This document shows positions 27,141 through 27,914 of a stretch of DNA of 28,423 nt, in pieces. This stretch comes from a virus. Taxonomy: Duplodnaviria > Heunggongvirae > Uroviricota > Caudoviricetes. The stretch is taken from positions 1-28,423 of the IMG/VR virus record IMGVR_UViG_2537562173_000011; one strand, 5' to 3'. Position 1 is the stretch's first letter. Each line of letters opens with the position of its first letter. Position numbers and translations under genes: made by a program. The notes under the pieces were generated by a model. The model had not been told where the DNA came from. It did not search any database and saw only the letters and a list, made by a program, of their open reading frames with translations.

Positions 27141-27412
27141 TGGACAAACACCCTCCCATTGTTAACCAATTTTTTAAGGGTAAGCACAATGGCCCGATCC
27201 ATTTCAGCCCTTCGCTCTTCCCTGCTCATATCTCTCCCATTATCAATTCTTGAATGACAATCAACACATAGCGCAGCAGTAAGGCAATCATCTACTTTAA
27301 TCCCAACCCCCTTCCCTTCATTTCTGTGAGCGGCCTGAACTCCGTATCTTCCGCAAAGAACGCAAAATTCAATATCCCTGACTGCCTGAAGCCATTTTTT
27401 GCTTCTAAACAT
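27137..27412 (-). CDS. Cys-rich nin-region protein (YbcO/DUF1364-like)
   Basis: 91 aa from ATG 27412; cysteine pairs CVLCG ... CVDCH suggest a zinc-binding nuclease-like fold; sits upstream of rusA as in DLP12-type nin regions. Confidence 0.5.
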   Translation of the reverse strand: MFRSKKWLQAVRDIEFCVLCGRYGVQAAHRNEGKGVGIKVDDCLTAALCVDCHSRIDNGRDMSREERRAEMDRAIVLTLKKLVNNGRVFVQ

Positions 27413-27914
27413 CAATCCCCTCCAAAAAACGTCGGTACGCTGATTTGTTTTTTATGTTGCACACTGTCTGCGCACAAACACCAAATTCTTTGGCTATATC
27501 TCTGTATTTGCCTTTTGATTTATATATTGATTTCACTTGTTCTGGCGTTAGTTTGCAGAAGTGATGATTAAACCCATGAACAAGCAATCCGGAATCAAAT
27601 CCATGTTTCGCATTTTCTGTTCGCGTTACCCACTCAAGATTTTCAACTTTATTATTAAGTTTATTTCCATCCTTGTGATTAACTTCCGGTTTGCCATCTG
27701 GGTTATCAATAAATACTTCTGCAACAATTCTGTGAACCATTTTATATGATGGTCTTTTCCCGCCACCTGGATACAGACCGACAAATGCATATCCTCCTGG
27801 TTTAATGCCATGAGATAATTTTTTTGATTTACGGCATGAAATGATGTCTCCATTTTCAGTTACTTTATATATACCCTCAAAGCCGGGGATATCTTTTTCT
27901 TTAACATCACTCAT
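27405..27914 (-). CDS. Free-standing HNH homing endonuclease (NUMOD4 + HNH_3 architecture)
   Basis: 169 aa; IPGFEGIYKVTENGDI (NUMOD4-like N-terminus), HRIVAEVFIDNPDGKPEVNHKDGNKLNNKVENLEWVTRTEN (HNH motif), C-terminal HTH-like tail; start overlaps the ninF stop. Confidence 0.8.
   Translation of the reverse strand: MSDVKEKDIPGFEGIYKVTENGDIISCRKSKKLSHGIKPGGYAFVGLYPGGGKRPSYKMVHRIVAEVFIDNPDGKPEVNHKDGNKLNNKVENLEWVTRTENAKHGFDSGLLVHGFNHHFCKLTPEQVKSIYKSKGKYRDIAKEFGVCAQTVCNIKNKSAYRRFLEGIDV

Follow-up and report, generated by a model that had tools for sequence, protein, structure and literature searches.

Genes at the locus

The DNA analysed here is the IMG/VR virus record IMGVR_UViG_2537562173_000011 (28,423 nucleotides (nt); hereafter the window, whose numbering is used throughout). 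Our subject is a gene on its minus strand that encodes a 169-residue HNH endonuclease (hereafter the HNH gene and HNH protein) in the local order ninX-ninF-HNH-p91-rusA-ninH-Q, in which the neighbours were identified with Pfam (Table 1). The open reading frame (ORF) begins with an ATG codon at 27914-27912 and ends with a TAG codon at 27407-27405, exactly the interval, 27405-27914, given to the gene in a first reading made from the letters of the DNA (hereafter the sequence-only reading). That reading had also placed the gene between ninF and a YbcO-like gene, with its start and stop codons overlapping both neighbours, and our analysis agrees: Pfam recognizes NinF upstream, the gene downstream has the YbcO fold, and the two overlaps are 8 nt each. 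The ATG codon of p91 lies at 27412-27410, and its stop codon overlaps rusA by ATGA. The same gene order is found in a near-identical Escherichia coli prophage, which adjoins P22-type head and tail genes.

Promoter and terminator scans found no promoter-like or terminator-like site for the HNH gene above chance, and no Rfam match, whether to an intron or to any other RNA, was obtained within 26000-28423 at E values up to 1. The gene is thus not carried in an intron but forms a free-standing cistron within the delayed-early operon. An intron- or intein-encoded origin is likewise contradicted by the ORF itself, which has its own start and stop codons overlapping separate neighbouring genes.

Table 1. 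Features of the HNH locus and their positions in the window
Feature	Position	Strand	Evidence
HNH endonuclease gene, free-standing, I-HmuI-type, 169 amino acids (aa)	27405..27914	-	ORF; Pfam; 1U3E sequence and fold match
NUMOD4 DNA-binding module, residues 7-48	27771..27896	-	Pfam PF07463; beta-strand region in model
HNH_3 catalytic core, residues 58-102	27609..27743	-	Pfam PF13392; 1U3E alignment
C-terminal helical (helix-turn-helix-like) DNA-binding region, residues ~124-166	27417..27545	-	Model; Foldseek alignment
8-nt overlap ATGAGTGA, HNH start codon within ninF stop	27907..27914	-	Sequence; left mosaic junction
8-nt overlap ATGTTTAG, p91 start codon within HNH stop	27405..27412	-	Sequence
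p91, 91-aa YbcO/DUF968-like His-Me-finger protein	27137..27412	-	PHROG 131; fold match to YbcO 3G27
Variable two-gene cassette, HNH + p91, replacing slot gene + hkbD	27141..27905	-	Homology breakpoints at ~27906 and ~27140; low G+C content, overall and at third codon positions
ninF, conserved left flank	27907..28083	-	Pfam NinF 1e-10; 94-99% identity in HNH-less phages
rusA, conserved right flank	26778..27140	-	Pfam RusA 1e-16; 97-99% identity in HNH-less phages

Domains, fold and active site of the HNH protein

Two Pfam models match the HNH protein above their cut-offs, namely NUMOD4 (PF07463; 29.2 bits against 23.4, E = 1e-6, residues 7-48) and HNH_3 (PF13392; 42.2 bits against 24.8, E = 6e-11, residues 58-102, covering profile positions 1-45 of 46), and PHROG 59, 'HNH endonuclease', matches it at 8e-51. 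The sole sequence match in the Protein Data Bank (PDB) is I-HmuI (1U3E; E = 9e-19, residues 6-121). An AlphaFold (AF2) model built on 44 homologues has a mean predicted local distance difference test score (pLDDT) of 91.4; it shows an intact beta-beta-alpha core, followed by C-terminal helices at residues 124-132, 137-144, 148-155 and 161-166, and a weak match to CENP-B_N covers residues 139-157. A Foldseek comparison of this model with the PDB again returned 1U3E as the sole match with E <0.001 (3.7e-10; template modelling (TM) scores 0.61/0.59; 162 columns for the 169-residue model), and since the alignment extends over 162 columns it includes most of the C-terminal helical domain. The assignment to the NUMOD4/HNH_3 type in the sequence-only reading is borne out by these matches, and the HNH motifs for which that reading proposed a profile search are present, in Pfam as well as in the I-HmuI-like fold.

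In the catalytic core, H80, N92 and N101 align with H75, N87 and N96 of I-HmuI, for which the residue roles reportedly go back to Shen and co-workers in 2004, and N79, H80, N92, N101 and H104 are invariant in the 44 HNH homologues. The profile, the NUMOD4 module, the catalytic residues and the fold of the whole protein all place it among the HNH_3, I-HmuI-like proteins (His-Me finger group 2), and we regard it with high confidence as an I-HmuI-type site-specific endonuclease. HNH_3 proteins with NUMOD, helix-turn-helix or AP2 modules form a group of His-Me-finger proteins that are largely homing endonucleases (PMC5714182). RefSeq already names the protein 'NUMOD4 motif-containing HNH endonuclease', and NCBIfam gave no match for the HNH protein, for p91, for HkbD or for the second HNH protein described below. 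An HNH protein of the HK97 gp74 type, acting in cos cleavage, was also considered and rejected, because the family is a different one, the terminase is not a neighbour of the gene, and the packaging genes of the prophage are of the P22 headful type.

The HNH protein has the same three-part architecture as I-HmuI of Bacillus phage SPO1 and its relatives I-HmuII, I-BasI and I-TwoI. The two proteins are of similar length (169 versus 174 aa), are 30% identical in the Foldseek alignment, and have the catalytic His and two Asn residues in common. I-HmuI is encoded inside a group I intron of a DNA polymerase gene and nicks one strand. Unlike it, the HNH gene studied here is free-standing, with no intron, and its neighbours are protein genes of a temperate enterobacterial phage; the residue equivalent to D74 of I-HmuI is Asn.

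The partner gene p91

The position before rusA, which p91 takes in the window, is occupied in HNH-less relatives by hkbD, a gene of the DUF1364/YbcO type. Both products belong to PHROG 131 (6e-31 for p91), but p91 is only 27% identical to HkbD over 55 residues, and its Pfam scores are below threshold (18.9 bits against 29.9 for YbcO and 19.7 against 27.8 for DUF968), as are those of its relatives. The p91 model (pLDDT 90.8) has YbcO (3G27) as its best fold match in the PDB (probability 1.00, TM 0.57/0.63), followed by the HNH nucleases TagI and Cap5. PDB sequence searches with the single p91 sequence and with an eight-sequence profile gave nothing meaningful, and only the fold search links the protein to YbcO. 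Because the model best matches 3G27, the label 'YbcO-like' in the sequence-only reading is right at the level of fold, though not by Pfam score. A zinc-binding pattern of the form CxxC...H...CxxCH (C17, C20, H29, C49, C52 and H53) is invariant in 35 homologues.

Thus p91 resembles the YbcO (DLP12, 3G27)/HkbD/DUF968-DUF1364 proteins of His-Me-finger group 7 in its position upstream of rusA, its PHROG and its fold, but it differs from them in remaining below the Pfam gathering scores for YbcO and DUF968 and in its low identity to HkbD. Typical neighbours of genes of this group are RusA, Q and antirepressor genes (PMC5714182).

Presence, absence and the slot after ninF

Of 5426 complete E. coli genomes, 34 have the HNH gene; it is full length and 98-100% identical to that of the window in 33 of these, and it is annotated beside ninF in 33 of the 34, the exception being QML220601. 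A near-identical copy is present in just two of 50,697 phage records, those of Escherichia phages Louie and Dewey. The conserved flanks ninF, rusA and ninX were found in 2249 genomes, and near-identical flanks occur at up to six places per E. coli genome. Identity of the HNH gene remains at 98-100% across backbones that differ in their Q alleles, in the presence or absence of NinX, and in the genes upstream of ninF.

We then surveyed which gene follows ninF in 119 IMG/VR loci, all among the matches listed, that have the same last 24 nt of ninF; the search pattern required GATGAG, and these loci are thus a sample, to which the IMG/VR counts below refer. This slot is occupied by a gene for an 89-aa protein in 46 loci, a 70-aa protein in 37, Roi in 15, a 72-aa protein in 10 and the HNH protein in 10, and is unreadable in one; none of the 119 loci has an empty slot after the canonical ninF end. 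All five slot genes, which are unrelated to one another, begin at one ATG inside the ninF stop and agree in the first two or three codons (MSD/MSE); the mosaic boundary is very sharp here. The HNH gene has in common with the others only its first three codons (MSD), and these are shared because the overlap with ninF forces them. The sequence-only reading had expected the gene to mark a polymorphic site among related prophages, and the counts in both the E. coli genomes (34/5426) and the IMG/VR loci (10/119) show that it does.

Homology of the window to the HNH-less phages CUS-3, 683R2 and mEp235 ends at 27897-27906, with ~27906 as the last common base at the left junction, and restarts at 27140. 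The variable block therefore covers 27141-27905 and contains two genes, HNH and p91, and the unit exchanged in E. coli is this two-gene block, which replaces a slot gene plus hkbD. The idea of an insertion at this site, as first proposed, thus holds with a qualification: HNH-less alleles do exist, but what is exchanged in E. coli is HNH together with p91 and not HNH alone.

A slot of this kind may also be explained in a passive way. HNH and p91 could be one of several interchangeable nin cassettes moved by ordinary Red, Erf, RecT or host recombination at conserved gene boundaries, with a nuclease that does not drive its own spread but benefits the phage, for example by acting with p91 and RusA in recombination, in the restart of replication or in DNA processing. 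The constantly filled slot, with five unrelated genes starting at one ATG in the IMG/VR matches listed, speaks for this explanation, as does a gene embedded in an operon without signals of its own. We nevertheless regard it as doubtful, since the gene is rare (0.6% of genomes) and dispensable and its product belongs to a His-Me-finger group made up largely of homing endonucleases (PMC5714182); further points on both sides are given below.

Linkage of HNH to p91

The p91 allele of the window (at least 95% nt identity) is present in 37 E. coli genomes, 34 with HNH and three without. The clade of HNH proteins with 58-100% identity spans E. coli, Salmonella, Citrobacter, Superficieibacter and Morganella. 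Relatives at 60-73% identity, found with tblastn in E. coli, Salmonella, Citrobacter koseri and Superficieibacter, lie directly upstream of a p91 homologue in 10 of 10 loci, and the same arrangement is seen in three Morganella loci, in which the HNH relatives are 178 aa long. The two genes overlap by 4-8 nt wherever they are paired, and the identity of the p91 homologue to p91 of the window tracks that of the HNH protein across relatives. Such co-divergence speaks for a passively exchanged module. Upstream of the pair the neighbours vary (NinF and an 81-aa gene, a 100-aa gene, a DNA methylase or DUF1367), and downstream there is RusA or Q. A scan of genome contigs with a broad HNH pattern yielded four informative relatives. 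Two E. coli contigs with unlike flanks (L208 and L209) have in common a block that is exactly HNH plus p91, at 97% identity (positions 2997-3812). Below ~58% HNH identity the pairing is lost.

Genes of the p91 type are far commoner than HNH, with 380 clusters, and often occur without it, which weighs against the passive explanation. A Salmonella cluster, p98 (98 aa, 77% identical to p91), was seen in 831 collection blocks and in four of the four places shown has the order NinE-NinF-p98-RusA, with a variant ninF overlapping p98. Among HNH-less E. coli, ninF directly abuts a p91-type gene in RM8082, NCTC9104 and DETEC-S565. In RM8082 and NCTC9104 the order is ninF-p93-rusA, where p93 has 98.9% nt identity to p91, and identity to the window starts at 27403, just inside p91, which is the junction with HNH-less p91 alleles. 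In all these HNH-less p91-type alleles ninF is of a different type from that of the window. Since p91-type genes without HNH abut a variant ninF, empty-site alleles of the HNH home position exist, and conserved presence of the gene in all relatives, which the sequence-only reading named as an outcome that would overturn it, is not what we find. The home of HNH thus behaves as the position immediately upstream of one YbcO-like subtype, p91.

Junction scars in hkbD

The 178-aa HNH relatives start with 'MANLRKEARGRECQV', a leader that corresponds to the first 44 nt of hkbD (ATGGCTAACCT...CAGGT) and forms 15 codons fused in frame to the HNH core, which in these proteins starts at 'DI.GF.G'. A different arrangement is found in two further loci (L020 and L021), where roi is kept and is followed by hkbD codons 1-10, a GGAAGA microhomology, the last 15 nt of ninF, HNH and p92. 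The remnant ORF of 16 codons that this leaves between roi and HNH (3080-3145 in L020, and also in L021) is a recombination scar. Two independent left junctions therefore lie within the first 45 nt of hkbD, a clustering that argues against purely passive exchange. Of the clues to where DNA may be broken this clustering is the best, but it is indirect.

A published example of an HNH gene fused in frame to the N-terminus of a gene that it displaced is gene 31 of the P22-like phage epsilon34, which joins the EaE N-terminus to a putative HNH homing endonuclease (PMC2629481). The 178-aa relatives, with their 15-codon hkbD leader, and the window, with its shared MSD start, show a parallel to it. Gene 31 differs in lying in the early left operon, at another site, and the likeness is one of arrangement.

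Selection, composition and decay

Codon alignments were made between the window and relatives at 60-70% identity, at which synonymous sites are saturated, so that no ratio of non-synonymous to synonymous substitutions (dN/dS) can be given for most pairs. Values of dN are 0.24-0.37 for HNH and 0.16-0.33 for p91, far below the saturated dS, and since dN is low while synonymous sites are saturated, both genes have been kept functional. The HNH gene has a G+C content (GC) of 36.7%, and 27.6% at third codon positions (GC3), and p91 has 43.8% and 38%, respectively, compared with ~50% and 56-58% in the flanking ninF and rusA. These low values suggest a foreign origin of HNH and p91.

Decayed copies also occur. 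Strain AH19B041 has a partial HNH copy, and two loci (L171 and L029) have lost HNH residues 55-164 through an in-frame deletion; the ORF that remains, of 59 codons, keeps the normal overlap with the p92 start, which suggests selection for continued translation of p92 after loss of the nuclease.

Could the HNH gene of the window itself be a relic in decay, whose product has lost its nuclease activity? The Asn at the metal-ligand position D74 of I-HmuI and the existence of truncated and internally deleted copies would agree with this, but we consider it most improbable: in 33 genomes the ORF has its full length, with 98-100% conservation, N79 occurs throughout the clade and hence is not a recent lesion, dN is far below dS, and the model is confident, with its beta-beta-alpha core intact.

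A probable free-standing homing-type gene

Rarity, dispensability, near-identity across backbones, a fixed site, decay, foreign composition and the presence of other HNH genes nearby lead us to the view that this is probably a free-standing selfish gene of the homing type. Presence/absence polymorphism, near-identical copies in different backbones and degenerate copies are all observed, and the purifying selection, low GC, decayed copies and nearby HNH_3 genes fit a free-standing homing endonuclease. The enzymatic activity, target site and self-promoted copying of HNH we infer from family membership together with the population pattern.

A plausible course of events would be as follows. The product of the ORF would be a site-specific DNA endonuclease of the I-HmuI type, monomeric and sequence-tolerant, with a NUMOD4 beta-module at its N-terminus, a beta-beta-alpha-metal active site of the HNH_3 type and, at its C-terminus, a helical tail that binds DNA. 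Lacking promoter and terminator signals of its own and apparently coupled in translation to its neighbours, the gene would be expressed with the rest of the delayed-early (nin) operon of a P22-like prophage. During replication of an HNH-bearing phage beside a related HNH-less lambdoid phage or prophage, the enzyme would nick or cut the HNH-less nin region; the junction positions suggest that the resident YbcO-family gene, whether hkbD or an HNH-less p91, is hit within or close to its 5' end. Recombinational repair on the HNH-bearing template, with the conserved ninF and rusA flanks as homology arms, would then copy HNH and the linked p91 allele.

Several observations weigh against homing. The metal ligand D74 of I-HmuI is replaced by Asn (N79) throughout the clade. 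No association was found between single nucleotide polymorphisms (SNPs) in ninF or rusA and the presence of HNH (27-29 HNH-bearing versus 60-107 HNH-less loci), and no co-conversion tract is therefore visible in the flanking DNA beyond p91; the linked p91 allele itself could be the co-converted tract. Neither the E. coli genomes nor the IMG/VR matches listed contain an allele in which the canonical ninF directly abuts p91, so the insertion cannot be reduced to a pair of alleles with and without the gene at one site in one backbone. Every junction coincides with a gene boundary, which is also the pattern of ordinary mosaic exchange among lambdoid phages, and long-term purifying selection with constant p91 pairing would also fit a domesticated function. 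Finally, cleavage and conversion by HNH are steps that we infer.

Much of this bears directly on passive cassette exchange, which the always-filled slot, the lack of co-conversion in the flanks and the long-term purifying selection suit equally well; junctions falling exactly on gene boundaries, purifying selection that is strong across a divergence at which dS is saturated, and the in-frame deletion in L171, which keeps the coupling to the partner gene, may also be counted in its favour. The decayed HNH copies, the foreign base composition and the several HNH_3 genes scattered over other nearby junctions tell against such exchange.

Returning to homing, the free-standing Seg and Mob endonucleases of T-even phages offer a close parallel in population pattern, being alike in their conserved-gene flanks, their presence or absence among related phages and their linkage to a divergent neighbouring allele. 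The T-even Seg and Mob genes home without an intron, with co-conversion of the neighbouring resistant allele. T-even phages are lytic, however, and their endonuclease genes usually have promoters of their own; homing was shown there by experiment and here is read from sequence. The nuclease families also differ, those of T-even phages being GIY-YIG or, for Mob, His-Me group 1 (PMC5714182).

A nuclease that damages hkbD-type lambdoid phages, co-resident or superinfecting, might instead act mainly in competition, with copying of the gene as a by-product. E. coli often has several lambdoid prophages, with near-identical nin flanks at up to six places per genome, and HNH-bearing genomes carry a strongly divergent YbcO-type allele (27% identical to HkbD) that could be immune. 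Free-standing endonucleases of T-even phages cause marker exclusion, a general precedent for such a role. We consider this explanation quite unlikely: HNH has no promoter of its own and so is probably silent in the lysogen, no defence-system model matched (NCBIfam gave nothing; PADLOC was not searched), and mechanistically exclusion overlaps with homing rather than displacing it.

A more far-reaching idea, which we offer as speculative and rather unlikely, is that HNH and p91 together are a two-nuclease allele-replacement cassette, a natural 'cleave and rescue' gene drive among prophages of Enterobacteriaceae. HNH, probably a nickase, would attack the 5' end of the hkbD-type YbcO gene in competing lambdoid phages, and p91 would be a cleavage-resistant, functionally equivalent YbcO-type gene whose product may also make the second-strand cut.

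The class of HNH proteins concerned is already well known and the RefSeq name is in place, and the present analysis adds little on this kind of gene as such. What is gained is a concrete, testable case of a free-standing HNH gene in temperate lambdoid phages, with a defined home site, with natural HNH-plus, HNH-minus and decayed alleles, with cultured carriers (phages Louie and Dewey), and with junction scars that make the 5' end of hkbD the likely target. Should homing prove true, part of the well-known mosaicism of the nin region would be driven by nucleases and not by passive recombination alone. In the literature we found no description of this gene, of the constant pairing of HNH with a YbcO-like gene, of the hkbD-leader scars or of the allele series.

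Other HNH_3 genes nearby

HNH_3 genes at other junctions are unrelated to the one studied here, and the window or its relatives provide clean empty sites for them. A second HNH_3 gene, for a 168-aa protein (Pfam 1e-19), lies inside ninF in L015 (3441-3947) and L029; its insertion point corresponds to the interval between 27972 and 27967 in the window, ~55 nt upstream of the studied HNH gene. The insert replaces the C-terminal tail of NinF, and for this insert the window is a clean empty-site allele. A further HNH_3 gene is located at the hkbD/rusA junction (L128, L153 and L164) or at the p98/rusA junction (L296 2794-3291, ~165 aa); in most relatives, the window included, the YbcO-family gene and rusA overlap directly. 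NUMOD4/HNH_3 genes are also present between Q and the holin gene in a prophage of E. coli WP3-W18-ESBL-08 (L204 18351-18872) and in phage HK629, and in a Morganella-type contig (L299 3325-4455) an HNH_3 domain is fused to a Q-like antiterminator in a protein of 376 aa.

Other features of the window

A 5'-truncated argE fragment of ~290 codons, 98% identical to E. coli argE, lies on the plus strand at 25141-26034, between Q and the holin gene, and is preceded by a G8-TGT-A20 homopolymer stretch. Its junction was found in none of the 5426 complete E. coli genomes and none of the 50,697 phage records; the fragment could be either an assembly chimera or a unique piece of captured host DNA (a moron). 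A near-perfect palindrome with arms of ~44 nt, common to CUS-3, HK75, Sf6 and many IMG/VR relatives, lies just upstream of the holin gene, at 25040-25139, and is presumably part of the late-operon leader or terminator region.

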